From the sequence record PV357169.1: a stretch of 43,293 nt of DNA. One strand, written 5' to 3'. The notes under the pieces were generated by a model, which saw only the letters and a list, made by a program, of their open reading frames with translations, did not search any database and had not been told where the DNA came from. Source of the DNA: a phage. The position numbers and the translations under genes were made by a program. This document shows positions 882 to 43,293 of this stretch, one piece after another; the first letter of the stretch is position 1; every line of letters starts with the position of its first letter.

Positions 882-940
882 TGCTTTACATTGTGCCGAT
901 TATATGCTACGCTGCGCGCTCCCCACTAGGGCGCACATCC

Positions 941-980
941 ACTACCCACCACTACCCACCACTATCCACCACTATCCGCT
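941..980 (+). repeat. Tandem direct repeat, 4 x 10 bp (ACTACCCACC x2, ACTATCCACC, ACTATCCGCT)
   Basis: Seen directly. Confidence 0.8.
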
Positions 981-1056
981 ACACTCTGCCGTACTCTGTC
1001 GCTATCCCCAGAGCTATCCCTTACTCTTACTTTCATTCGAAAGCTATTCTGAAATG

Positions 1057-1073
1057 ATGTTACAGGAGTAGGA
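1057..1073 (+). promoter_or_regulatory. Copy 1 of conserved motif ATGTTACAGGAGTAGGA (candidate phage-RNAP promoter or nick-site element)
   Basis: Identical 17-mer also at 21259-21275 and 33408-33424; a variant at 13115-13134. Confidence 0.4.
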
Positions 1074-1494
1074 GGGTTTTAGGGAACTACATACACACTA
1101 CTTACTACTACTCACTAGTATCCCCTAGTAATGCCCTGTATTACGACCGTAGGGAGTAAGCATTACCTACACAGTCACCGCATCACTACGTGTCCTTTCA
1201 CTACGTACGGACACTACGTGACGCTTTATGTAGTACCGTGTAGTGTTGACTAGTAGTGGCTAGTATCGGCTAGTGCTATCCCTATTATGGTTGTAAGTAT
1301 TTGCCCTGCTTACCCTTTTTTGCCCTTAGGGATAAATATTTGCAAAAACTTTAAAATATTACTTGCTTCTTTTGGTTTGTTAGCGCTATAGTTCAATCAC
1401 CGGGAGGCGCTGAGGCGCTGAACGGGGTAGAGTCGGGAGACTCCACCGGATTAAAGCTAAATAGTGTGAAGGGTTAGATACTCAATAAAAAGAG

Positions 1495-1523
1495 TTGACA
1501 CCGCGAGGGACATAAGTTAGATT
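1495..1523 (+). promoter_or_regulatory. Candidate host sigma70 early promoter (TTGACA - 17 bp - TAGATT)
   Basis: Perfect -35 hexamer at 1495-1500, 17-bp spacer, 4/6 match -10 at 1518-1523; rightward, at the start of an ATG-poor leader before the first early gene. Confidence 0.4.
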
Positions 1524-1949
1524 GAATCCCGAAGTAAGAAGACTTCCCGATAGGTGATTAGCATCACGTTAAAAGGCTTCAACGGGGAGGCATCGGAAGA
1601 TGCAAGGTAGGACGCGCAAGGAGGCGCTAACAGGTAGTAAGAAATAAACGCGTGACAAGTTCTGATTCACCTAGTAACTTAGATAGCGAACAACGTAGTA
1701 AGCTGGTTTGCGGGGAGGCCCAGTACCTTAACTGGTACGTTGACGACCAAGCCTAGATAATCAGTTATAAAGAGTAAACGTGCCGGACGTTATCACCGGG
1801 GTTCTGAGGCAAACCTTACTGCCGAGGCGTGAGCAGCACGCTCCTCTGAATCGAGGGAACAAGGCGCGGAGTGTATCCCGCAAAGAGCATATAACATAGC
1901 GTAGCAGTAACAAGGCTGCGCTAGATTATGTTCTCTGAGAGGTAAGAGT

Positions 1950-2147
1950 ATGCGCAAAGCAAAACGCCTAGTATTGCGGCGGAATATGCAGTTATCACTG
2001 AATCCTACCGACGACGTGCCGCTTACTGTGAAGCCCAGCAAACAAGGACTTAGCAGTGAGCACAAGGTGAGGGGAAAGCAAAAACAAAAGGGCGGCAGTA
2101 AACAGCCTAGTGGGTGGCCTACTGTTAACTCCCAATTTGGGCACTAA
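1950..2147 (+). CDS. Small basic early protein (65 aa), hypothetical
   Basis: ATG preceded by GAGAGG 7 nt upstream; first ORF after the long leader. Confidence 0.45.
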   Translation: MRKAKRLVLRRNMQLSLNPTDDVPLTVKPSKQGLSSEHKVRGKQKQKGGSKQPSGWPTVNSQFGH

Positions 2148-2153
2148 TTACAG

Positions 2154-2183
2154 CCTATAGCATCCTATGTGGTGCTATGTGAA
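2154..2183 (+). promoter_or_regulatory. Conserved stem-loop element A (CCTATAGCATCCT...GCTATGTGAA)
   Basis: Stem TAGCA/TGCTA; same flanks and a co-varying stem at 2937-2966 and 9714-9745; 45 nt upstream of the gene at 2226. Confidence 0.45.
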
Positions 2184-2225
2184 GTAATTCGATAAGTAAA
2201 CAACCAACAATCAAAGAGGTGCGTC

Positions 2226-2801
2226 ATGACTCATTCAACTGGTAAAGTATTTAAGCTCACTGCTGCTGCTGGTATCCGCAAAGCACTGTCTGGCGTAGTG
2301 GAAGCAAAGCGCAACATCACTATCAGCGCGCTCTTTCACGGCCTGATTAGCAGCAACGTTTCCTGGGCTACTGAAATGCAGCGCAGCGACGCCGCTGACT
2401 TCGATATGGTGCTGCGTACGCTGTTGCCCATCAAGTTTAACAAGGAGTCCGGCAAGTACGAATTCAATGCTAAGAAGTGCTATGCGTCTGCTGAGAAGCT
2501 GGGTATCGAACTGGACACTATGCGTCTGGATTATAAACAAGCTGACAAGCAAGGCCGTGAAGAGATTGTGACCAGCTTCTATAGCTCCTGTATGGCCCTG
2601 TACGCTGCTGAAGCAGAGCAAGTGAAGAATGATGCCCTTGATGCCGATGCAGTGCGCCTGCAAGCTCTGGGGCGCGTTAAAAACGCCATCAAGAAGGCTA
2701 AAGAAACTGGGGTGAGCGACTCTGATTTGGTATCTATGCTTATCAGTCAGGGCGTGGATGTACGCGCTGTACTGGATGCAACTTTGAAGGTAGCGGCATG
2801 A
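2226..2801 (+). CDS. Early protein, hypothetical (191 aa)
   Basis: Long ORF with AAGAGG RBS 7 nt upstream. Confidence 0.7.
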   Translation: MTHSTGKVFKLTAAAGIRKALSGVVEAKRNITISALFHGLISSNVSWATEMQRSDAADFDMVLRTLLPIKFNKESGKYEFNAKKCYASAEKLGIELDTMRLDYKQADKQGREEIVTSFYSSCMALYAAEAEQVKNDALDADAVRLQALGRVKNAIKKAKETGVSDSDLVSMLISQGVDVRAVLDATLKVAA

Positions 2802-2929
2802 TTTATAAGATTCAAGCTATCAAGTGGTGGGCATTGATTCCGGCAGCTAACGACTCTGACGCCTTTGATGTGCCAACCCGGGGCCGCCATAACAGGTGGC
2901 ACTATAAGGGATTGGGAGAATACGTATAA
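2798..2929 (+). CDS. Small hypothetical protein (43 aa), translationally coupled (ATGA overlap)
   Basis: ATG overlaps the stop of the upstream gene; below the ORF-track size cutoff. Confidence 0.25.
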   Translation: MIYKIQAIKWWALIPAANDSDAFDVPTRGRHNRWHYKGLGEYV

Positions 2930-2936
2930 TGGTAAG

Positions 2937-2966
2937 CCTATAGCGTCCTGCGGGGCGCTATGTGAA
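2937..2966 (+). promoter_or_regulatory. Conserved stem-loop element B (CCTATAGCGTCCT...GCTATGTGAA)
   Basis: Stem ATAGCG/CGCTAT; compensatory change relative to element A. Confidence 0.45.
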
Positions 2967-2989
2967 TACCGTTAACAACGGGGTTTCAA

Positions 2990-3211
2990 ATGAAAGCAAA
3001 GCTAATCTATCCGGGGCATGTACTCTGGCCCGTATGGTGCAATCAAGTGCATACAGAGTATAACTATACTGTGATGATATTCTCTGACCGCGACACCAAT
3101 CAGGAATCCCCTTTAGATCTCGTAGACACCCATACCGAAGCAGCGGCGCGTACTTTGCTGGATGCCGTGAATCTCGGTATTATTACCGACTGGAGACAAC
3201 TTTATGACTAG
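2990..3211 (+). CDS. Early protein, hypothetical (73 aa)
   Basis: ORF directly downstream of stem-loop B; weak RBS. Confidence 0.5.
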   Translation: MKAKLIYPGHVLWPVWCNQVHTEYNYTVMIFSDRDTNQESPLDLVDTHTEAAARTLLDAVNLGIITDWRQLYD

Positions 3212-3467
3212 TATTGTCAATATCATTGTTACCAGCGCCATGCTGGTGCTAGGCAACGATGTGAATAACCCAGTGCCTTATTGCACTGTACACGTCCAAC
3301 AAGGGCAGCAGCAGGAGCAGCAACCACGCCCTGAGTACGACCTCTTTGAGAATCCAGAGGGCGGTTGCAAGGCGTTAGGTATTCGCCTACTTAAGGCGGT
3401 GCGAGAACAAGTGCCTAACGTCGCGGTAACTCTGACCGTGGACGGTGTAAGCAACAACGGTATCTGA
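3204..3467 (+). CDS. Early protein, hypothetical (87 aa, Gln-rich centre)
   Basis: Start overlaps the stop of the upstream gene. Confidence 0.5.
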   Translation: MTSIVNIIVTSAMLVLGNDVNNPVPYCTVHVQQGQQQEQQPRPEYDLFENPEGGCKALGIRLLKAVREQVPNVAVTLTVDGVSNNGI

Positions 3468-7648: not shown

Positions 7649-8439
7649 TGGACCAGCCCTGGCTTAGAGCGTGCAAGCGCCTGGCCGTGGGGCAGAGGGC
7701 ACGCTTTCGGTGCTGCGGCAGGGACTCCGCCGGGGTGCTCTATAATAACCCGGATGCCTGGGAATACTATTGCCACCGCTGCAAACAGGTAGGCAAGGAG
7801 CGCAAGCAGTACCAGCGCATACAGTTACAGGAAGAGCCGAGGGTGCAGCCCTCTGCACCTGCAGATGCAATTTGCATTAGCCAAGCGCCTGCAGAAACGC
7901 AGAGTTTTATTTACGGATTCCTTGCTTCAAAGGGAATCATGCCTGAAATGGTGGGGGATGCAGAATGGAGCAAAGAGAAACAGCGGATAATCTTCCGTGT
8001 CGGAAGCGCTGCTCTGGGCCGTGCAGTACATGCTCGGCAGCAACCGAAGTGGGTAATGTACGGCCAGCCAATAGCTTTCGCTGTCGCGGAACCTGCCGTA
8101 GCACCGGCTGTAGCTGCGGGCGCTCCTCTAAAGGTCGTGCTCACAGAGGACTTACTCTCAGCCCTGAAGATACAGCACGCAGTTACGAGCTACAGTGCGT
8201 TGAACGTGCAGGCTATAGCTATGCTGGGTACACGCTTGCCCACGCAGCTAAGGGCCTGGCTGATTCAGAATCGCCCGGAAGTGATTCTAATGTTGGACAA
8301 TGACCCGGCAGGACATGCTGGGGTAGCGGCAACACGCCGGGCACTGCGCCCGTTCATGCAGTGCCGAGAACACTACTTCGCTGCGGATCCTAAGGACGCA
8401 GAAATCAAAGAGATACTGGAGGCATTAACTTGGACTTAA
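7648..8439 (+). CDS. DNA primase (zinc-ribbon + TOPRIM)
   Basis: CCGRDSAG...YYCHRCKQ zinc-binding pattern; acidic TOPRIM motifs LTEDLL and MLDNDPAG. Confidence 0.7.
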   Translation: MDQPWLRACKRLAVGQRARFRCCGRDSAGVLYNNPDAWEYYCHRCKQVGKERKQYQRIQLQEEPRVQPSAPADAICISQAPAETQSFIYGFLASKGIMPEMVGDAEWSKEKQRIIFRVGSAALGRAVHARQQPKWVMYGQPIAFAVAEPAVAPAVAAGAPLKVVLTEDLLSALKIQHAVTSYSALNVQAIAMLGTRLPTQLRAWLIQNRPEVILMLDNDPAGHAGVAATRRALRPFMQCREHYFAADPKDAEIKEILEALTWT

Positions 8440-9710
8440 TAGTTGTGCGTGCAATGTGCACGCAGAAGGTCTGGAACCGACTGCGAGAGCAGATACCCAA
8501 GTCTATGCTTGCGCCGGACACCTCGAACCTGCTGGACTGGGTAGGGCTGTACTGGAACACGTACCCAGAGCACCAAGAGGTGCAGTGGGATGCGATGCAG
8601 AGTATGCTCAACCTCCGGGCCGGGCATCTATCCCGTGAAGAGCGGGTGATTATGGATGAGCTTATGCGGGGAGTACAAGCCGTACCACAGGATTCTGTGG
8701 TGGGGATTGTGCAGACCCTGAATGAGTTGGCATACAGCGGAGAGGTTGCAGCGCTCACGCAGCGCTACCAAGACGGTGAGGAGGTTGATTATCTACTGGA
8801 GATGAAGCACCTCCAGCGCAAGTACGGGGATGGTGCTGCTGTTCATGATTCGCTACTAGAGTGGGAGAGCGGAAGTGTTGATGAGATACTTGCCGCGACT
8901 GATGAAAGTGGTGGTCTTAAACTGGGCGTATTTGAGCAACTCTCTAATAGCATCCGCGGGCTTCGCGGTGGTGATTGTATTGCTGTGGCTGCCCCTGTTG
9001 ATTCTGGTAAAACTAGCCTACTCGCTGCTATTGCTGTGGACTTTGCTAAGCAGATGCAGCAGCAACCGGAGGTGTACGGGGATCGTCCGATTCTATGGCT
9101 GGTTAATGAAGGCCCGGCGACGCGCACTGTGCCGAGGGTATACCAAGCGGCGCTGCATTGGACTCTGGCTGAGATTAAGGACAGGCACAGTAAGCAAGAG
9201 TTTGTGCCGGCCTATTTGGAGAAAGTAGGTAGGGCTGACCGCATCCGTATCAAGGCGGCACACTCTCTTACTATGGCTCAAATCTCTACGCTAATGGAGG
9301 AGATGCGCCCGGCGGTAATCATCATAGATATGGTAGCTAACATCCGTGGTGGTACGATGGAGAGCGAACACCAGAACCTAGAGGCGAAGTGGCAGGAGCT
9401 GCGAATCCTGGGGTGTGAGAATGACTGTGCCGTTATTGGTACTATGCAGCTTTCACTCGAAGGTTATAACCTGCTGTTTCCACCGCTCACAGCAATGAAG
9501 CAGAGTAAGATTGGTGTGCAAGGTGCTTTGGATTTAGCAATTATGATGGGGTGCTTGGACAGGAACGAGCAGCCGCATATGCAAAACATTCGTGGTATCA
9601 GTACGCCGAAGAATAAGATGGCGCTATCGGGTAAGGAATCGCTACTGCAATTCGAGGTAGCATTCGACCCAGGTAGATGCCGATTTAACGAAGGGCAGAT
9701 TAACAAGTGA
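8430..9710 (+). CDS. Replicative DNA helicase (DnaB/T7 gp4 C-terminal-like)
   Basis: Walker A AAPVDSGKTSLL; directly follows the primase; probable TTG start with GGAGG RBS. Confidence 0.75.
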   Translation: MDLIVVRAMCTQKVWNRLREQIPKSMLAPDTSNLLDWVGLYWNTYPEHQEVQWDAMQSMLNLRAGHLSREERVIMDELMRGVQAVPQDSVVGIVQTLNELAYSGEVAALTQRYQDGEEVDYLLEMKHLQRKYGDGAAVHDSLLEWESGSVDEILAATDESGGLKLGVFEQLSNSIRGLRGGDCIAVAAPVDSGKTSLLAAIAVDFAKQMQQQPEVYGDRPILWLVNEGPATRTVPRVYQAALHWTLAEIKDRHSKQEFVPAYLEKVGRADRIRIKAAHSLTMAQISTLMEEMRPAVIIIDMVANIRGGTMESEHQNLEAKWQELRILGCENDCAVIGTMQLSLEGYNLLFPPLTAMKQSKIGVQGALDLAIMMGCLDRNEQPHMQNIRGISTPKNKMALSGKESLLQFEVAFDPGRCRFNEGQINK

Positions 9711-9713
9711 CTT

Positions 9714-9745
9714 CCCTAGCGCCTTCCTAGAGGGCGCTATGTAGG
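9714..9745 (+). promoter_or_regulatory. Conserved stem-loop element C (CCCTAGCGCC...GGCGCTATGTAGG)
   Basis: 7-bp stem TAGCGCC/GGCGCTA; related to elements A and B; sits just after the helicase gene. Confidence 0.4.
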
Positions 9746-9772
9746 TACACAGATGATGGATGGAGATATACT

Positions 9773-9871
9773 ATGTTTATACTGACAGACTGGGAGTGCA
9801 AGCACTGCGGGGCAAGGTTGACATTTATAGGTGGTATGTGCATCCAGTGTGGGAGAAGGCAGAATGCTTAA
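9773..9871 (+). CDS. Small zinc-ribbon-like protein (32 aa; CKHC...CIQC)
   Basis: GGAG RBS 8 nt upstream; two CxxC pairs; below the ORF-track cutoff. Confidence 0.35.
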   Translation: MFILTDWECKHCGARLTFIGGMCIQCGRRQNA

Positions 9872-10019
9872 ACCGTCCGACATTAACTATCTCGACGAAG
9901 AGGTAATTAAGGCGTACGCTGCATCTGTGGGTACTTTCAGCATACGGCCCGTGCTAATTAGCAGCCGGCTGATTGTGCACTTGGCTGTCAATAAGGCGCG
10001 GAGGATTAATTGGAGATGA
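9864..10019 (+). CDS. Hypothetical protein (51 aa)
   Basis: Internal ATG of track ORF 9831-10019 with GGAGAAGG RBS. Confidence 0.35.
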   Translation: MLKPSDINYLDEEVIKAYAASVGTFSIRPVLISSRLIVHLAVNKARRINWR

Positions 10020-10465
10020 CAGATTGTATCGACCACGGGCAGAAGGGAAGCACTTGCCGAGGAAAGTGCGCTGGATATGGCCGCTCCAGATTTGATGGAG
10101 AGACAACTGGAAGCCACCGCAAAGCGTATTGTATAGCCCACAACTTGAAGCTGAGTGATATCGCGGGACTTGTAGTCCGGCATTCGTGTGACAATCCTCG
10201 GTGCATAAATCCGGAGCACCTGCTACTAGGGACTTCTAGTGATAATATGCAGGACCGAAATAAAGGTGCGCGTAATTTGCTGGGCAGCCGCAACCCTGCT
10301 GCCAGACTTACCCCAGAAGACGTGCACAGTATACGAGAAGCATATGCTGGCGGTGAGACCCAGGTATCTATAGCGAGACGCTTCGGGATAAGTCAAGGAT
10401 ACATATCTAATATCATAAAGGGGAGGGTATGGAATGAGCAGAAGCATCCTGATAACGGATTATGA
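10010..10465 (+). CDS. HNH homing endonuclease (copy 1)
   Basis: HSCDNPRCINPEHLLLGT HNH core; paralog of 13155-13589; 3' end overlaps the DNA polymerase start by 32 nt. Confidence 0.8.
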   Translation: MEMTDCIDHGQKGSTCRGKCAGYGRSRFDGETTGSHRKAYCIAHNLKLSDIAGLVVRHSCDNPRCINPEHLLLGTSSDNMQDRNKGARNLLGSRNPAARLTPEDVHSIREAYAGGETQVSIARRFGISQGYISNIIKGRVWNEQKHPDNGL

Positions 10466-12991: not shown

Positions 12992-13114
12992 TGATATAGG
13001 TGGACCCTTGGGTGGTGTAGGGGGTTAGGGTAGCATGAGAATTAGCTAGGGTCAAGCAGATAATTAATTAAAATTATTTGTTGACTCTGACTTGATTCTG
13101 TGATTTACCGAGAA

Positions 13115-13134
13115 TTAATGTGATACGAGTAGGA
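13115..13134 (+). promoter_or_regulatory. Variant copy of the conserved motif (TTAATGTGATACGAGTAGGA)
   Basis: 16/19 identity to the 21259 copy; 20 nt upstream of the HNH copy 2 start. Confidence 0.3.
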
Positions 13135-16501: not shown

Positions 16502-17469
16502 TGATTATCAACGGGGTTGACTTGTCCCAGCTCGGGGAGCAGCTAGCCCCGCAGAACTCTGGGAAGATTCTGCTATATGACGCAGATTTTTGCGTGTACA
16601 AAGCCGCCGCTACAGTGAAACGTTTAGATACGGCGATACGTCGCTTCTATCAGCTAGTGCTTGAGGACATGTTCTTGGTGGGCTGCTCGGAAGCAGTGGC
16701 GTATCTTACTCCTGCTGGTTGTGCTAAGTGTCTGCGTTGGCACCTACCCACAGCTAAGCCGTACCAGGGGCAGCGAGCTAATCGGCAGGAGCTACCACTG
16801 AAGGCACCTTTGAAGCGGCACCTGATTGATAATCCGGACCAGTATTCTGAGCAAGGTATCCAAGTAGTTAGTAGCGACTTCTTCGAGGCGGATGATCTAT
16901 TCATAATGGACTCATACGCTTTCGGTGAGCGCGGTATACTGATGTCACAGGACAAGGACTCCTGGCTCAGCCCTATGGCCCGGTTCGATATCCCGACCGG
17001 AACCGTGTGGCCTGCCTTGAATAACCCCTTCGGCTGGATTAAGTGGGATGATACCCAGGCTATGCCAGTACGGGCGCATGGCACTAAGTTCTTCTGGTGG
17101 CAGATGCTAGCAGGGGATGACGCAGATAACGTCAAAGGCATCACATTGCTTGATGGGAAGCTCTGTGGGAAGCGAACGGCCTTTGATGCTATCTACCCTA
17201 TTACCTCAGAGCAGGACGCCGCAGAATTCGTTGTAGCGGCTTATGCTCGAAACAACCAAGACGTACTCGCAGAGGCTGAATGCCTGTGGCTGAGGCGCTC
17301 CCAGTCAGATTCAGCGTACCTGTATCTGATGTCACTGTTGACTACTCCCAGTCTGCGTGACTGGGTGCACTCGCTGCACGAGTACCATAAACAGCACATA
17401 CAGTGGATACAGGAGCACCCAGACAATGGCGAAGATGACTGCGAAGGAAATGAGCCTGCGGGCGATTGA
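16501..17469 (+). CDS. 5'-3' exonuclease (FEN/PIN-like, T7 gp6-like)
   Basis: Acidic clusters LLYDADFCVYKAA, FEADDLF, GDDADNVKG. Confidence 0.7.
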   Translation: MIINGVDLSQLGEQLAPQNSGKILLYDADFCVYKAAATVKRLDTAIRRFYQLVLEDMFLVGCSEAVAYLTPAGCAKCLRWHLPTAKPYQGQRANRQELPLKAPLKRHLIDNPDQYSEQGIQVVSSDFFEADDLFIMDSYAFGERGILMSQDKDSWLSPMARFDIPTGTVWPALNNPFGWIKWDDTQAMPVRAHGTKFFWWQMLAGDDADNVKGITLLDGKLCGKRTAFDAIYPITSEQDAAEFVVAAYARNNQDVLAEAECLWLRRSQSDSAYLYLMSLLTTPSLRDWVHSLHEYHKQHIQWIQEHPDNGEDDCEGNEPAGD

Positions 17470-18783: not shown

Positions 18784-21252
18784 ATGATTAGCGCCCTGAA
18801 TACGGTTGTAGTACCAGAGGAAGCACTGGTGGAACGCCAGTTGGAGCTTGAAGAGACCTACAAGATTCGCGGCATTGAACGTGCTCGCAAATTGATTACC
18901 GATGCTCTACAAAACGGCGGGATTATGAACCTGCCAATGACTCAGCGTATGCTCACCTCTGCGTATGATGTAGCCTCTGCAGCCATTGAGGAAATGCGTA
19001 ACGTTAAAGCCCCAGGTATTGGTGGAAAGTACCGCCGATTCCTGCGCTTAGTCCCCTTGGATGTCCTAACTACTCTGAGCCTGTGCACAATGTTTGAGGC
19101 GTTCAGTGTAGCCCCTGGTGAGTCCGCCAGTCGCCGCCAGACAGCTCAGGCAGTGATGTCCGCTCTGGGTAGGAATGTACAGTCAGAGCTGCTGGCCCTA
19201 CAACTACGTAATGTTGCCCCAGCGTATATGGACCGGGTATATGAATACCTCACTGAGCGCCGTACTAAGTCGCCTACGCACATTCTACGTACGCTCCGCG
19301 CCAGTGCTGAGAACGTGCACTATGGGCATGAGCCTTGGACCAACGCTCAGAATATTTCTGTGGGACGTCTGCTGTGTTCCGCAGTGTTTGAGACAGGGCT
19401 GTTCCAGTGGAAGACGGGTAGTGGGAACTTGAGTATGCTATATCCCGCAGATAATGTTATGGAAGCATTTCAGCAGTTAGTGGAATCTGCTGACACTGTA
19501 ACTATGAAGCCTCCGATGCTGGTACCGCCGGTGCAACATACTACACTGTGGGATGGTGGATACCTCACCCCAATCGATAACCGTGGGACGTACCACAACT
19601 CACACATTGACCGCGCCAGACTGCGTGAAGTAGCAGAAGCATTTAAGTCTGCGGACGGTATCAAGAAGGCACTTAATAAGGCGCAGGAAACTCCTTATCG
19701 CATTAATAAGCAAATACTGGAACTGGTACAAGAAGCACGGGCCTTAGGTATTGGTGTAGGTATGCCGCGCTCAGTGCCAGAGCCGAAACCTGAGTGGTAC
19801 TTAGATGGTGTACCAAAAGAGAATTACACCGAGGAGGAACTCGACCGCTTCGGAGAGTGGAAGACGCGTATGTCCTTATGGTACAGCGCCGACCGTAAGC
19901 GTGTGTCGCAACTGCGTAGTCTATTGACCACGCTAGAGATGGCAGAGGAATTCAAAGATGAGAAAGCCTTGTACTTCCCGACTTGTGTGGACTGGCGGTA
20001 CCGACTGTACTTCAAGTCCTCACTGCACCCACAAGGTTCTGATTTGCAGAAAGCCCTTCTTGAATTCGGACGAGGTAAACCTCTGGGAGAGAGGGGGCTA
20101 TTCTGGCTTAAAGTGCACGTCGCTACATGCTTTGGTTATGACGAAACCCTATTCGAAGACCGCGCAGCTTGGGTTGATGCAAACTTTGCAGAGATTGAGC
20201 AGCTCGCGGATTCTCCTTTTGATTGCCCTGCTTTTACCTCCGCCGACAGCCCTTGGTGCTTCCTGGCAGCCGCTATCGACTTGGTTAATGCTGTACGTTC
20301 TGGATGCCCAGAAGAGTATATTAGCCGAATCCCAGTTGCTATGGATGCTACAAACTCAGGTGGGCAGCACCTCTCAGCGCTCCTGAGAGACCCTGTAGGC
20401 GGACGCCTGACGAACCTGTACTGGGAGGGTAACGACAAGAAAGCGGATCTGTATATGGACGTGAAGCGCCGTACGGACGAGAAGGTGATACTGGACCTGG
20501 ACAAAGAGGATTTCGTTATCCAGAGCACGTACTGGAGAGAGAACGAAATCACTCGAAGCATGACCAAGCGTCCTAGCATGACCTACTTCTACAGCGCCAC
20601 GGTGCGCAGCTGCAGCGACTACATCTTTGCAGGGGCCTGTGAAGAGGGGTATGAAGGAACAGACACGCACAGTCTCTGGAACTTATCCTGCTACCTTGCC
20701 CCTAGAATGCGTAGCGCTATTGAGGAAGCTAACCCGGCAGCAGCAGCAGCTATGGGGTATCTGCAGAACCTAGCTAGGCGTGTACCTGCTAGTCAGCATC
20801 TGCAGTGGAAGACTCCTCTAGGCGGGTTGGTGATGAACCGGTACTCTCAGCGAGAGGAGGTGCGTGTACGTATTGATTGTATGAACCTATCTGCCGTGCT
20901 GGTGCACAACCGTGACTTTAAGACCTGTAATAAGCGCAAGGCTGCCTCCGGTATTGCTCCGAACTTTGTACATAGTCTGGATAGTACGCACTTGATGATG
21001 GTACTCTGTGCTGCAGAAGGTATAGATATTATACCTATTCACGATTCGATGGCTACTCACGCATCTGACGTTGATGCTCTGCACCGCCATATCCGTGAAC
21101 AGTTTGTGAAGCTGTACGAGGAGCATGATCTTCTGGGGGATATTACCCGGGCAGCTGCCGAAGCAGGGGCAGACCTCACAGATTTAGAGATGCCTGCAAT
21201 AGGTACTTTGGACATCCGACAAGTACTGGAATCACCCTTCTTCTTCTCATAA
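18784..21252 (+). CDS. DNA-directed RNA polymerase, single-subunit T7-like (822 aa)
   Basis: Catalytic motifs PVAMDATNSGGQHLSALL and IPIHDSMATH; AAGGAG RBS; sits at the end of the replication module. Confidence 0.9.
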   Translation: MISALNTVVVPEEALVERQLELEETYKIRGIERARKLITDALQNGGIMNLPMTQRMLTSAYDVASAAIEEMRNVKAPGIGGKYRRFLRLVPLDVLTTLSLCTMFEAFSVAPGESASRRQTAQAVMSALGRNVQSELLALQLRNVAPAYMDRVYEYLTERRTKSPTHILRTLRASAENVHYGHEPWTNAQNISVGRLLCSAVFETGLFQWKTGSGNLSMLYPADNVMEAFQQLVESADTVTMKPPMLVPPVQHTTLWDGGYLTPIDNRGTYHNSHIDRARLREVAEAFKSADGIKKALNKAQETPYRINKQILELVQEARALGIGVGMPRSVPEPKPEWYLDGVPKENYTEEELDRFGEWKTRMSLWYSADRKRVSQLRSLLTTLEMAEEFKDEKALYFPTCVDWRYRLYFKSSLHPQGSDLQKALLEFGRGKPLGERGLFWLKVHVATCFGYDETLFEDRAAWVDANFAEIEQLADSPFDCPAFTSADSPWCFLAAAIDLVNAVRSGCPEEYISRIPVAMDATNSGGQHLSALLRDPVGGRLTNLYWEGNDKKADLYMDVKRRTDEKVILDLDKEDFVIQSTYWRENEITRSMTKRPSMTYFYSATVRSCSDYIFAGACEEGYEGTDTHSLWNLSCYLAPRMRSAIEEANPAAAAAMGYLQNLARRVPASQHLQWKTPLGGLVMNRYSQREEVRVRIDCMNLSAVLVHNRDFKTCNKRKAASGIAPNFVHSLDSTHLMMVLCAAEGIDIIPIHDSMATHASDVDALHRHIREQFVKLYEEHDLLGDITRAAAEAGADLTDLEMPAIGTLDIRQVLESPFFFS

Positions 21253-21258
21253 AATTTA

Positions 21259-21275
21259 ATGTTACAGGAGTAGGA
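21259..21275 (+). promoter_or_regulatory. Copy 2 of conserved motif ATGTTACAGGAGTAGGA, abutting the first post-RNAP gene
   Basis: Exact 17-mer (20-mer TTAATGTTACAGGAGTAGGA shared with copy 3); at the replication/structural module boundary. Confidence 0.45.
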
Positions 21276-25727: not shown

Positions 25728-25770
25728 GCGCCCCTGGTGCCTTCGGGTGCCGGGGGCTTTTTTTTTTTGT
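25728..25770 (+). terminator. Rho-independent terminator after the capsid module
   Basis: GC-rich hairpin with TTCG loop (GCGCCCCTGGTGCC-TTCG-GGTGCCGGGGGC) followed by T11. Confidence 0.8.
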
Positions 25771-25813
25771 CCCTGTCTTAAAGGTCCTAGGGGTCTTTAA
25801 TAGAGGAACAAAT

Positions 25814-32099: not shown

Positions 32100-35000
32100 A
32101 TGGCTCAGTTTCTGAACCAAGAACCGAATCCACAGGAAAAGGATTCTGCTAAGGGCGCAACACTTAAACCTGCGCCTGCGCGTATAGATTGGAACGATGC
32201 GGGTGATGACGGCTTGAATGCACTGGAGCGTGCCTCCTTACTAGCACAGGCCAAGACTCCTGCTACTACAGCTGCAGAGAGCTTTGCGTCTGGTATGGGT
32301 AATAGCATCATAGCTGCAGCTATCCGTAAAGCCTCCGCCCCGGCATTTGTCCCAGAGCAGGGTTTTGATGCTAAGAAGCAATTAAGCACTGATTCACGGG
32401 CTAAACTCTATACCCCTAATCAAGAAGAAATTGATTACTTACATGGAGCAGTGTCTCTGGAGGACTATAACTACCGCATACAGCAGATGCTTGATCAGCG
32501 TCATCGCGATCGCTTAATGGCTGACAACACAATAGCTGGGTTCGCTGGGGCTATAGCAGGTGACTCTCCATTTCTCCTAGCTCCGATGTCTGCGGCAGGT
32601 ATCGCTGGTCGGGCTGGCTTAGCAGTGCGCACTGCTATCCGCGCAGCGGATGTAGGTACGGCTGTTTATGCACAGGACCAACTGGGTCAGTCTGCGGCAG
32701 TTACTGCTCTTGTAGCAGGTGTAGCTGGTCTAGACCAACTCTGGGATATCCGTAGGGCTGTACGCGCATCTACGGCAGCTGCGTCAACTACAAGAGCTGC
32801 TGAGACCACCCCTAATGCTGCTACGGCAACTTCCCGCACTGCTCCGGAAGAAGTAGCAACAAGTCGCAATGTGGTAGATTCCCCTGCTGGCCCGTCTAAT
32901 GCGCAAGCTGATAGTGCTGCGGTTGCTAAAACCACTGACGGTTTACCAGAAGGTTTAAGCTTGAACGTGCTGGATGATGTAGAGCACCACGCTTACTCTG
33001 GTGTACGCGTACCTGGTATAGAGGTAGAAGTAAATCGCGGAGATAAGTTGGTTGGTGTTGTGCAGGCTTATCGTGTAGGTGATGATTTACAAGTAGCACA
33101 TGCCTGGGTTGATAAATCCCTGCGTGGCAAGGGAGTAGGTGCGAGCATGTACAAAGCACTAGTTAAGCGCGCTACTGATGCAGGATATGGTAACTTGTTG
33201 TCTGATAACTCAGTAACTGCGTCTGCTCAGCAGATGTGGCGCAAACTTGGTGCTACCAAAACCAAAGATTTTAAAGAACTAACGGACGGTATTGAAGGGC
33301 AGCGTTATGCAGTCTCTGCGGATGAAAAGTCCCCACTCTTTACTCTAGACTTGAAACGTCCTGTGTTTGACCCAGATGCGCCTACAACTCGTACAGCGAG
33401 GGATGTTAATGTTACAGGAGTAGGAGAGGGGGAAGAAATCCTCACCAAAGCACTGGATGAACCGATAAAAGTCCTTAGAAACAACACTACTACTGTTAAC
33501 ATTAAAGCGCAGGACGTAGTTCGATTCCTAAAGACCTCTGAGCATTTATCTAAGGGTCAGAAGGCTATCCTGGACACCCTGGGCGATGCAGTACAGGACA
33601 TTGATTTTAAGTTGGTGGCAGGCTCTTCTAACCGTAGCCACTACAGCTTTCCACTGGTATCAAGAACTGATAGGGGTTTTGTATCTTTACGTGCCCCTAA
33701 GAAAGCTAATGGAAGTACTTGGACAACTGTAGGCGACGCCCTACGTGCCATGGACGCCGATACTAGTCGAGTAGCAGTGCACGAGCTGATTCACGCTGCC
33801 ACTACTAGGGCCCTTAAGCGGAATCCTGAAATTGCTAGTAAGCTGGAAGAGGTGCGCGCTGCAATAGCAGCTGATTCAACCCTCAGTGATAAGCTTAAGT
33901 ACTACGCAAGCGATGTGCACGAGATGCTAGCTGGACTAGGTGATAGCCCTGAGTGGGTGGAGTATCTCTCTAAAACTCAATCTCCTACTGGTAGGAGTAT
34001 GCTCCGCCAGATTGGTGAGTACATCATGAATGCCCTGGGGATTCGCACCAAGGGGTCCGCTCTGGAGGATGTTCTGGACGCGTACGAGGATGCTGTCAAG
34101 TGGACAGCAAAGGACTACGCAGAACAAGTTCAGAGCTTCCGCAGCGAATCTTTCCAGGACCTAGCGGATACATCGGTTAAGAATGAGGCCCTGAAAGCTC
34201 AGACTATGATGGACACGGCCAAGCGTAAGTTAGCCACTATGTTCTCCCTGTATGATAACATCGCAGAGGGTAGCGAGGACCTGGCACGCTTACTGGTATC
34301 TGATGCTACTGCTGTAGGCGGTCGTAAACCGTCTGTGGTGGACTTCAAGCGTAACCTTACGTTGGAGATGGATGCTAGTGCCAGTGTAGTTGAGGACGCT
34401 ATACTTGGTGCCCTCAAGGCCAAAGGTGTAGGTTTCATAGACCGCTTCTTCCACCGTAGCAACTTCCGAGCAGCTCGTGCTGACTTAGAAGATCGCTTGG
34501 GCCGTTACCTGGACTCTGCGTACAGCGCTGAGGTTAATGGACGCCCTGTACCTCTGCCGGACTCTGACTTGGTTCCGCTAGTAGAGGCGTACCGCAACTC
34601 CGGCTGGGCCAGTAAGTGGCACGATCACATGACTGCTGCCGGACTGGTGGATGACGGTACTCTGATTAAATCGGACTATTACTTCCCTCGCCAGTACAGC
34701 TACGATAAGATGCGCCAAGGTATTGCAAATGGTCGCTCCCTGGATAATTATCGGGATCTGTTCCGTCAGGCATTGCGTGACGTGTACCCGTCTATGGAAC
34801 CCGAAGTTGTCCAGCGCGTTGCTAAGGAGATGGTTGACGGTATCTATAACGGACGCTCCTCGGCTTCTGGTCCTATGTGGAAGCAACTCATCAATGGTAT
34901 GGGTAATGATGAAGTAGTTATGGCCATGCGTAATGCTGGCGTAGACGAGAGTGCAATCCAGAGTTTCTTGGCAGGTAATGTCCGAGAATCTGGCGCTACC

Positions 35001-43045: not shown

Positions 43046-43293
43046 ATGAACGAAATGTTCTCACAAGATGGTAAAGGTTCAACGGGAATCTTAACTAATA
43101 AACAAGCAGTGGCTCGACACTTCGGAGTTAAGCAATCAGAGGTTGTTTACTTCTCAGTGGGTGCTCTGCTTGCTGGTTACAAAGTCATCTATGACAAAGT
43201 GACACAGCGTGCTTACTCATTACCTGCTGATATTGGTTCTGGGGTTACTGTTGTAAGCCTTAGTCCTGCCGGAGTATTAGTACACTCTGCCGG
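43046..43293 (+). CDS. 5' part of the junction-spanning gene (continues at 1-314 after removing the 91-nt overlap)
   Basis: ATG with GAGG RBS; the ORF runs off the end of the window. Confidence 0.5.
   Translation, partial: MNEMFSQDGKGSTGILTNKQAVARHFGVKQSEVVYFSVGALLAGYKVIYDKVTQRAYSLPADIGSGVTVVSLSPAGVLVHSA
43203..43293 (+). repeat. 91-nt exact duplicate of window positions 1-91 (circular-assembly overlap)
   Basis: Seen directly; identical base for base. Confidence 0.95.

Follow-up and report, generated by a model that had tools for sequence, protein, structure and literature searches.

The early region of a phage deposited as sequence record PV357169.1 raises the question of which function resides in a family of stem-loops with compensatory base changes that recur directly upstream of its genes. 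Three such elements are present in the window (the whole stretch of DNA analysed, 43,293 nucleotides (nt) long), which is that of a KP34-like (Drulisvirus-type) podophage: element 1 at 2154–2183 (CCTATAGCATCCTATGTGGTGCTATGTGAA), element 2 at 2937–2966 (CCTATAGCGTCCTGCGGGGCGCTATGTGAA) and, after the helicase gene, element 3 at 9714–9745 (CCCTAGCGCCTTCCTAGAGGGCGCTATGTAGG). A first-pass annotation made from the sequence alone had named RNase III-type processing sites, transcription attenuators and promoters as candidate functions. We consider it moderately probable that the elements are RNase III-type intercistronic processing sites on the sense transcript, and among the three candidates this is the one that architecture, position and a match to the proximal box of RNase III substrates indirectly support best.

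All three sequences lie exactly where the first-pass annotation had placed them, and its estimate of 20–45 nt to the next gene start is borne out by distances of 43, 24 and 28 nt between elements 1, 2 and 3, respectively, and the next ATG. Their positions were thus correct but their lengths were not: because the flanking lower stems also pair and co-vary, the true structures extend over 2146–2189, 2927–2974 and 9707–9750, all on the plus strand. Element 1 is composed of a lower stem AAUUAC/GUAAUU, an AG/AA internal loop, a C-G pair, a C·U mismatch, an upper stem UAUAGCAUC/GGUGCUAUG and a 6-nt loop; its 5′ base overlaps the stop codon of the open reading frame (ORF) 1950–2147 and the next ATG is found at 2226. 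Element 2 combines an 8-base-pair (bp) lower stem UAAUGGUA/UACCGUUA and the core of element 1 with an upper stem UAUAGCGUCC/GGGGCGCUAUG and a UGCG loop, its 5′ base being formed by the stop codon of the 43-codon ORF 2798–2929, with the next ATG at 2990 (fold −29.3 kcal/mol, z-score −4.12). Both elements constitute a 32-nt direct repeat of 84% identity and differ by a compensatory exchange of A-U for G-C at the top of the conserved part. Element 3 is treated as a diverged relative of the same architecture, with a lower stem GUG.ACUU/AGGU.CAC, an upper stem of 10 bp (UAGCGCCUUC/GAGGGCGCUA) and, between the two, the C-G pair and the C·U mismatch; its 5′ base includes the stop codon of the helicase gene (9708–9710), and the next ATG is located at 9773 (z-score −2.44). 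In five relatives it is conserved immediately behind the stop codon of the helicase gene, and only the loop varies among them. The relatives Minorna, SFN6B and AV102, which infect Escherichia coli, possess identical elements. Upon folding of 71-nt pieces, the dot-bracket core '(.((((((((((...)))))))))).)' was common to elements 1–3, with 17–21 predicted pairs each, and the elements are followed on their 3′ sides by GUGAAGUAAUU, GUGAAUACCG and GUAGGUACAC.

The proposal that compensatory stem changes reflect a selected structure is strongly supported by comparison with related phages, and covariation, U·G wobbles and folds identify this structure as a sense-strand RNA. An alignment of 30 diverse copies follows one 20-pair structure with all lower stems in a single register. 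In this alignment 87.6% of the cells are paired, versus 26–47% when the partners are slid by 1–3 columns; both sides of the pair have changed in 13 of the 20 pairs, and the observed covariation score was reached by none of 500 shuffles. The core is invariant in these 30 copies only because the search pattern fixed it. A second set of 40 Drulisvirus loci was fetched via the 191-aa protein encoded 3′ of element 1 and not via the motif. The examined loci of this protein-anchored set carry the motif upstream of the gene for this protein, as the orthologous copy of element 1, and a second copy downstream. Across the 108 copies including these 40 loci, 88.5% of the cells are paired and double changes occur at 14 pairs. 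Overall, the pairing of 88% compares with 24–47% in shifted controls. Even the core was found to change in a compensatory manner in the protein-anchored set, U18-A42 being replaced by C-G in two genomes, with a C·A intermediate in one, and U·G by U-A at 16-44. The 93 distinct copies, with 88% pairing over 20 modelled pairs, describe a quasi-continuous helix of about two turns, in which variable stems lie below and above a conserved, distorted core that contains a C-G pair, a C·U mismatch, a U·G wobble and AUAGC/GCUAU. A purine·A and a C·U mismatch flank the C-G pair about 10 bp below the loop and interrupt the helix in all copies.

A covariance model derived from the 30-copy alignment recovers element 1 with 57.9 bits (E about 1e-15; 2141–2194) and element 2 with 64.7 bits (E about 7e-18; 2924–2977). 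The model is dominated by the core, the invariance of which stems from ascertainment, and re-finds exact-core copies while it misses diverged ones; for this reason element 3 is matched only weakly and locally, at 14.3 bits (E 0.11). The sharing of flanks, also pointed out at first pass, requires a distinction in that the short flank words GCTATGTRRR and CCTATAGC are, with one mismatch allowed, not over-represented in the window, whereas the complete element departs far from chance expectation.

A hairpin at 1884–1937 on the plus strand may belong to this functional class as a fourth member; it lies 12 nt before ATG 1950 and precedes the first early ORF. It comprises a long lower stem, a 2x2 internal loop and a 9-bp upper stem UAGCGUAGC/GCUGCGCUA, shares UAGCG...CGCUA in its upper stem with elements 2 and 3 and folds with −26.1 kcal/mol (z-score −4.75), the minus strand being worse. 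The hairpin is conserved in relatives with wobble-compatible changes; the covariance model gave no match to it. In some Drulisvirus genomes two hairpin copies are found 88 nt apart (locus L263, 1335–1476, and two further loci). Between the two copies lies a mini-ORF of seven codons (MVGYGEG), which is provided with a Shine-Dalgarno sequence of its own and the stop codon of which is part of the base of the second hairpin.

The strand on which the elements act can be read from the wobble pairs. U·G is present at 16-44 in 92 of the 93 distinct copies; it is also the most common pair at 23-37 and occurs frequently at 25-35 and 22-38. These wobbles turn into A·C mismatches on the complementary strand, and for this reason the minus strand folds more poorly than the plus strand for each of the three elements. 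Every copy examined (Drulisvirus, K1-5, lambdoid) is intergenic and co-oriented with the genes, with the upstream stop codon in the 5′ base of the hairpin. As in the window, the sites of K1-5 and T7 precede the next start codon by a few tens of nucleotides. The elements act as sense-strand RNA and not as DNA signals. A function at the DNA level, as a phiKMV-like nick site, a cruciform, an operator bound by a dimeric protein or a site of single-strand initiation, appears very unlikely to us, although nick sites have been suggested for these sequences (Eriksson 2015, PMC4411677) and the sequence is an imperfect palindrome. Owing to the invariant U·G wobble and C·U mismatch, the two arms are not equivalent and the complementary strand is poorly paired, unlike a symmetric DNA site, and in three phage groups that replicate in different ways the hairpin is invariably oriented along transcription. 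The phiKMV nick consensus CGACNNNNNCCTACTCCGG gave no match in the whole window with up to three mismatches.

The promoter candidate has a published counterpart. The sequence AGCCTATAGCGTCCTACGGGGCGCTATGTGAA was reported at two early-region positions in five KP34-like genomes as a putative phage promoter, with nick sites as the alternative, and elements 1 and 2 match this Kp34likevirus consensus at the same two early positions; the description includes neither the flanking lower stem and its covariation with the rest of the structure nor the third copy, behind the helicase gene, nor the occurrence outside the genus (PMC4411677). That a phage single-subunit RNA polymerase starts at these sites is, in our view, highly improbable. 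The reading draws on a conserved stretch that exceeds 20 nt and lies upstream of early genes, and on the CTATAG string, which is faintly reminiscent of T7/SP6 promoters (PMC4411677). However, purified KP34 RNA polymerase made no RNA in vitro from a polymerase chain reaction fragment with the motif, and the true strong promoter of KP34 was identified as the unrelated 16-mer T(A/G)ATGTTACAGGAGTA (Lu 2019, PMC6834552). The elements bear no similarity to this 16-mer, exact copies of which lie elsewhere in the window, namely at 1055–1070 (TGATGTTACAGGAGTA), upstream of all elements, and at 21257–21272 and 33407–33422, in positions equivalent to those in KP34 (all plus strand). Double-stranded promoters do not show stems that co-vary. 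Moreover, the motif occurs in lambdoid phages, which are not known to encode a phage-type RNA polymerase. A host promoter at the elements was likewise rejected, as the sole promoter-like site between 900 and 3300 is a sigma-70-like one at 1495–1523 on the plus strand (TTGACA, 17 nt, TAGATT), away from the elements and upstream of elements 1 and 2. Its sequence is that of the 'host promoter' listed for KP34-like phages (Table 3 of PMC4411677). Since this site and the phage promoter at 1055 lie upstream, the elements are transcribed, elements 1 and 2 as part of the early operon. Two degenerate matches to the KP34 promoter with three mismatches each are also found, at 13116–13131 and 16940–16955.

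The suggestion of an attenuator or intrinsic terminator is not supported, because the elements are devoid of a U-tract and no terminator-like site was detected in 900–3300 or 9300–10100. Two further RNA motifs were considered and discarded: the AG/AA loop is not kept as tandem G·A pairs across the phage groups, as a kink-turn would demand, and size and loop do not fit an antitermination hairpin of the lambda boxB type.

A scan of IMG/VR with the pattern CCTATAGC, 10–18 nt, GCTATGTG returned, besides the Drulisvirus copies, the same three-part hairpin in unrelated contigs. The hairpin is found in Vectrevirus (K1-5, K1E, ACG-C91) in the early region between genes 5 and 6, in the Escherichia phages J8-65, smaasur and Lidtsur near the anti-restriction SAMase gene, in the Pectobacterium phages Phoria and Gaspode and, very abundantly, inside the pL operon of lambdoid prophages and phages of Escherichia and Salmonella. 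Chance matches swamp the signal when the canonical pattern is applied to 596 Gb of bacterial genomes; usable among the matches listed there are copies in genomes of Tatumella, Rosenbergiella and one Pseudomonadales metagenome-assembled genome. In all groups the 8+8-nt core is identical, and the lower and upper stems are wholly different in sequence yet paired. No copy was seen in the fetched loci of T7 (whole genome) or in partial regions of lambda, HK140, mEpX1 and the K-12 Rac prophage; for lack of a copy in the fetched Rac region, the published RNase III maps of K-12 cannot be used for the motif. BLAST of one prophage-type group (that of locus L062) gave no match among deposited phages. In Rfam release 15 no family reaches its gathering score on 15 motif-carrying loci, elements 1 and 2 give nothing at E values up to 10, and element 3 only has a chance-level overlap with a miRNA family (20 bits versus a gathering score of 82). 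The motif as such is already known from KP34-like phages; its structural definition, its RNA nature, the distribution across phage groups and the functional assignment are new as far as we could find.

The assignment to RNase III was examined on the basis of the known substrate rules. The site of the Escherichia coli enzyme is an 11-bp helix in which, counted from the scissile bond, the proximal box (pb) consists of pb4 W-W′, pb3 A-U, pb2 W-W′ and pb1 G-C, followed by a 2-bp middle box and a distal box of U·G and U-A; as antideterminants, G-C or C-G at pb2 prevents binding, while catalysis is prevented by G-C at pb4 (Pertzev and Nicholson 2006, PMC1540722). The register of these boxes was rebuilt from the numbers in the text of that work (C9:G30 as pb2, U12:G27 and C13:G26 as middle box, a 6-nt 5′ product; PMC1540722). 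When the core pairs A17-U43, U18-A42, A19-U41 and G20-C40 are equated with pb4 to pb1, three of the four positions fit and no antideterminant pair is present. The distal-box columns of the lambdoid and Erwiniaceae copies match exactly, with U·G at 25-35 and U-A at 26-34. With regard to the conserved purine·A and C·U mismatches, we infer from the same study (PMC1540722) that they might restrict cutting to one strand and thereby leave a 3′ hairpin.

The elements were further compared with ten RNase III sites of T7 (R0.3–R18.5, among them R0.5, R1, R1.1 and R1.3), the coordinates of which we take to be those of Dunn and Studier 1983. RNase III cleavage is proven for these sites, while the present motif is a candidate site. 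The T7 sites fold alike, with a variable lower stem, an internal loop and a 9–10-bp upper stem; like the motif, they are intercistronic, on the sense strand and in the early region, they lie 25–35 nt before the next start codon, and the base of their upper stem is a conserved A/U-rich run followed by G-C. The cores differ (CCUAUAGC/GCUAUGUG in the motif versus CUCAAGGU/GCCUUUAUGAU in T7), as do the internal loops, which in the motif consist of two 1x1 mismatches around the C-G pair and are asymmetric in T7.

Natural variants offer an independent view of the core. IMG/VR was scanned completely for compensated core variants and the matches were filtered for the full architecture. The canonical core retained at least 96 copies (96 of the first 121 matches listed). 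For pb3, the A-U variant was found with the full architecture in 9 of 100 matches and the C-G variant in 3 of 85. No copy carried G-C at pb2 (0/65) or at pb4 (0/66), nor U-A at pb4 (0/76), and U-A at pb2 was limited to 2 of 47 matches, one of them a doubtful sequence. The lack of G-C at pb2 and pb4 together with the presence of A-U at pb3 agrees with the RNase III rules. In its sequence, the A-U variant at pb3, CCUAAAGC...GCUUUGUGAU, stands midway from the present core to the T7 core AAGG...CCUUUAUGAU. A sister motif, CCUAAAGC...GCUUUGUG, with the same stem architecture and a sequence likewise intermediate to the T7 RNase III core is present in eight other viral contigs.

Several points weigh against an assignment to RNase III. 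The placement of the proximal and distal boxes is a reconstruction from numbers in the text of the original work, and the T7 coordinates have their sole check in the conserved UAU|GAU at these positions. The pair at pb3 is U-A and hence reversed from the consensus A-U. In elements 1 and 2 the U·G pair is located at 23-37, two base pairs out of register, and 25-35 is C-G, followed by the U...G of the tetraloop. U-A, which the rules tolerate, is missing at pb4 and all but missing at pb2; judged from these variants, the scans show a core constrained beyond the known preferences of RNase III, and such a strict 8+8-nt core in unrelated phages could point to a sequence-specific partner. Finally, a literature search retrieved neither transcript-end nor cleavage data for any motif-carrying phage and no transcriptome study of a Drulisvirus, and a search on RNase III sites in SP6 and K1-5 returned nothing relevant.

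These features also define the main rival, according to which the hairpin is a binding site for another host or phage factor and regulates the downstream gene; it could be an operator of translation, a site for a chaperone or an antitermination factor, or a place where RNase III binds but does not cleave. Such a function is conceivable, albeit rather unlikely. It would account for a core conserved far beyond the needs of pairing, for the near absence of compensated pb2 and pb4 variants from IMG/VR next to fully diverged flanking stems, and for the conserved C·U and purine·A mismatches, which resemble a recognition surface. However, no candidate protein is common to Drulisvirus, Vectrevirus and lambdoid phages, so that the factor would have to be the host's; the loop, which many RNA-binding proteins contact, is variable; and layout and gene position are as at the T7 RNase III sites.

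The lambdoid copies provide a circumstantial argument for a processing role. In the lambdoid locus L013 (8449–8575) a small ORF is followed by the motif, then by AGCAAUGUCGCUCG...GCCCUCCAGUGUGAGGGC with a U-tract and then by cIII, and as far as the terminator stem the stretch 3′ of the motif does not differ from the lambda sequence that separates ral from ea10. This region of lambda encodes the Hfq-dependent small RNA (sRNA) PreS/LPR1 of about 88 nt, which ends at tL2a (bioRxiv 10.1101/2024.10.31.621285; PMC12197685). In lambdoid prophages, the end of the motif is the exact start of the PreS/LPR1 homolog. Lambda and HK140 differ from these prophages in carrying an unrelated hairpin, GUGUAUUCA...UGAAUACAC, at the same spot, and counting 88 nt back from the lambda U-tract leads to the first base after lambda's own hairpin (L125, 1120–1260, minus strand). 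Compared with the pL operon of lambda, the motif in many lambdoid prophages thus takes the place of the hairpin that precedes PreS/LPR1. Either the motif or its lambda substitute sits where the 5′ end of the sRNA must be made from the pL transcript. In the early-left operon of the K-12 Rac prophage, the RefSeq annotation likewise has a small RNA upstream of kilR, namely KilS (L286, 7406–7503), in a position analogous to that of PreS in lambda; the sequence of this locus is unrelated and contains no copy of the motif.

The motif is, in addition, a mosaic boundary in E. coli genomes, because 2244 genomes share the sequence from its 3′ edge onward and 55 share the upstream part. These numbers would fit a third explanation, namely that the hairpin has a passive structural role, by stabilising the mRNA or causing a pause, and that its core serves mainly as a short homology patch for recombination between phage modules and owes its spread to this. 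The mosaic junctions, the different genes found 3′ of element 3 in relatives and the tandem copies in some genomes conform to this explanation. Nevertheless, we regard it as unlikely, since a recombination linker needs no co-varying 20-bp helix with conserved mismatches, and stabilisation by itself would not preserve an internal sequence without variation. Known sites of regulation and processing, furthermore, typically form mosaic boundaries, so that the mosaicism is possibly a consequence of the function rather than the function itself.

For processing by RNase III we propose the following scenario, in which we infer the enzyme as the acting factor from the substrate rules and the likeness to T7. 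As structured segments of the early and middle transcripts, the elements each occupy the spacer between the upstream stop codon and the ribosome-binding site of the next gene. Each segment folds into a quasi-continuous helix of about 20 bp with a variable top stem of 4–5 bp, mostly capped by a tetraloop. Host RNase III might then bind the helix and cut the 3′ side of the distorted region. The cut is predicted within GCUAUGU^GA^A, i.e. at about 2180–2183, 2963–2966 and 9740–9743, and the new 5′ ends would fall within GCUAUGUGAA; the box register would place it at GCUAUGU^G, and the 13-nt loop distance seen in T7 R1.1 at GUGA^A. As a result, the upstream mRNA would keep a protective 3′ hairpin and the downstream mRNA would gain a 5′ end 25–45 nt before its start codon. 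RNase III acts in this way at the early sites of T7.

KP34-like phages are among the most used candidates for Klebsiella therapy, and the motif, the single non-coding one that stands out in them by its conservation, has been without an accepted function since the promoter reading failed in 2019. Processing by RNase III, if true, would explain the division of the long early transcript into separate messages. The occurrence of one core in very different enterobacterial phages, together with a lambdoid copy that abuts a regulatory sRNA, suggests a reusable processing cassette, which could serve RNA family libraries, the annotation of transcript ends in phage genomes and, as an insulator part, phage engineering. 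As a more far-reaching and quite tentative idea, to which we give only a minor chance, the CCUAUAGC/GCUAUGUG hairpin might represent a horizontally spread RNA module outside Rfam, common to unrelated Enterobacterales phages (Drulisvirus, Phoria-like, J8-65-like, Vectrevirus and lambdoid); its core might be read by a host factor more sequence-specific than ascribed to RNase III, and one of its jobs might be to set the 5′ ends of regulatory RNAs such as the PreS homologs.

The classification of the window as Drulisvirus-type is based on its gene layout, with a DnaB-like helicase gene at 8430–9710 and a single-subunit RNA polymerase gene at 18784–21252, both on the plus strand as are all long ORFs of the window. 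Its first 12 kb resemble KP34-like podophages of Klebsiella and Escherichia (265 matching records, among them KPV811 with 93% and Minorna with 91%). The window ends carry a perfect 91-nt direct repeat (1–91 and 43203–43293), consistent with a terminal repeat or with a genome assembled from terminally redundant DNA. Repeats with a period of 10 nt (ACCACTAYCC and ACTAGTA types) form clusters at 948–1274 on the plus strand, where the non-coding left end surrounds the first phage promoter. A near-perfect, very A/T-rich hairpin (13047–13090, plus strand; z-score −4.35) is located in an intergenic region just 5′ of the promoter-like site at 13116. The known rho-independent terminator at 25730–25757 on the plus strand (GCCCCUGGUGCC...GGUGCCGGGGGC with a U-run) is directly followed by another plus-strand hairpin at 25766–25812, just before ATG 25814 (z-score −1.3); its dot-bracket layout is that of the elements, and UUAAAGGUCC/GGGUCUUUAA, the upper stem, is reminiscent of AAGGUC...CUUUA, the core of the T7 RNase III sites. 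Extended hairpins, defined by a stem of at least 9 bp with a continuing helix, number 12 on the plus strand and 3 on the minus strand of the whole window, and this excess on the plus strand fits a selection for transcript structures.

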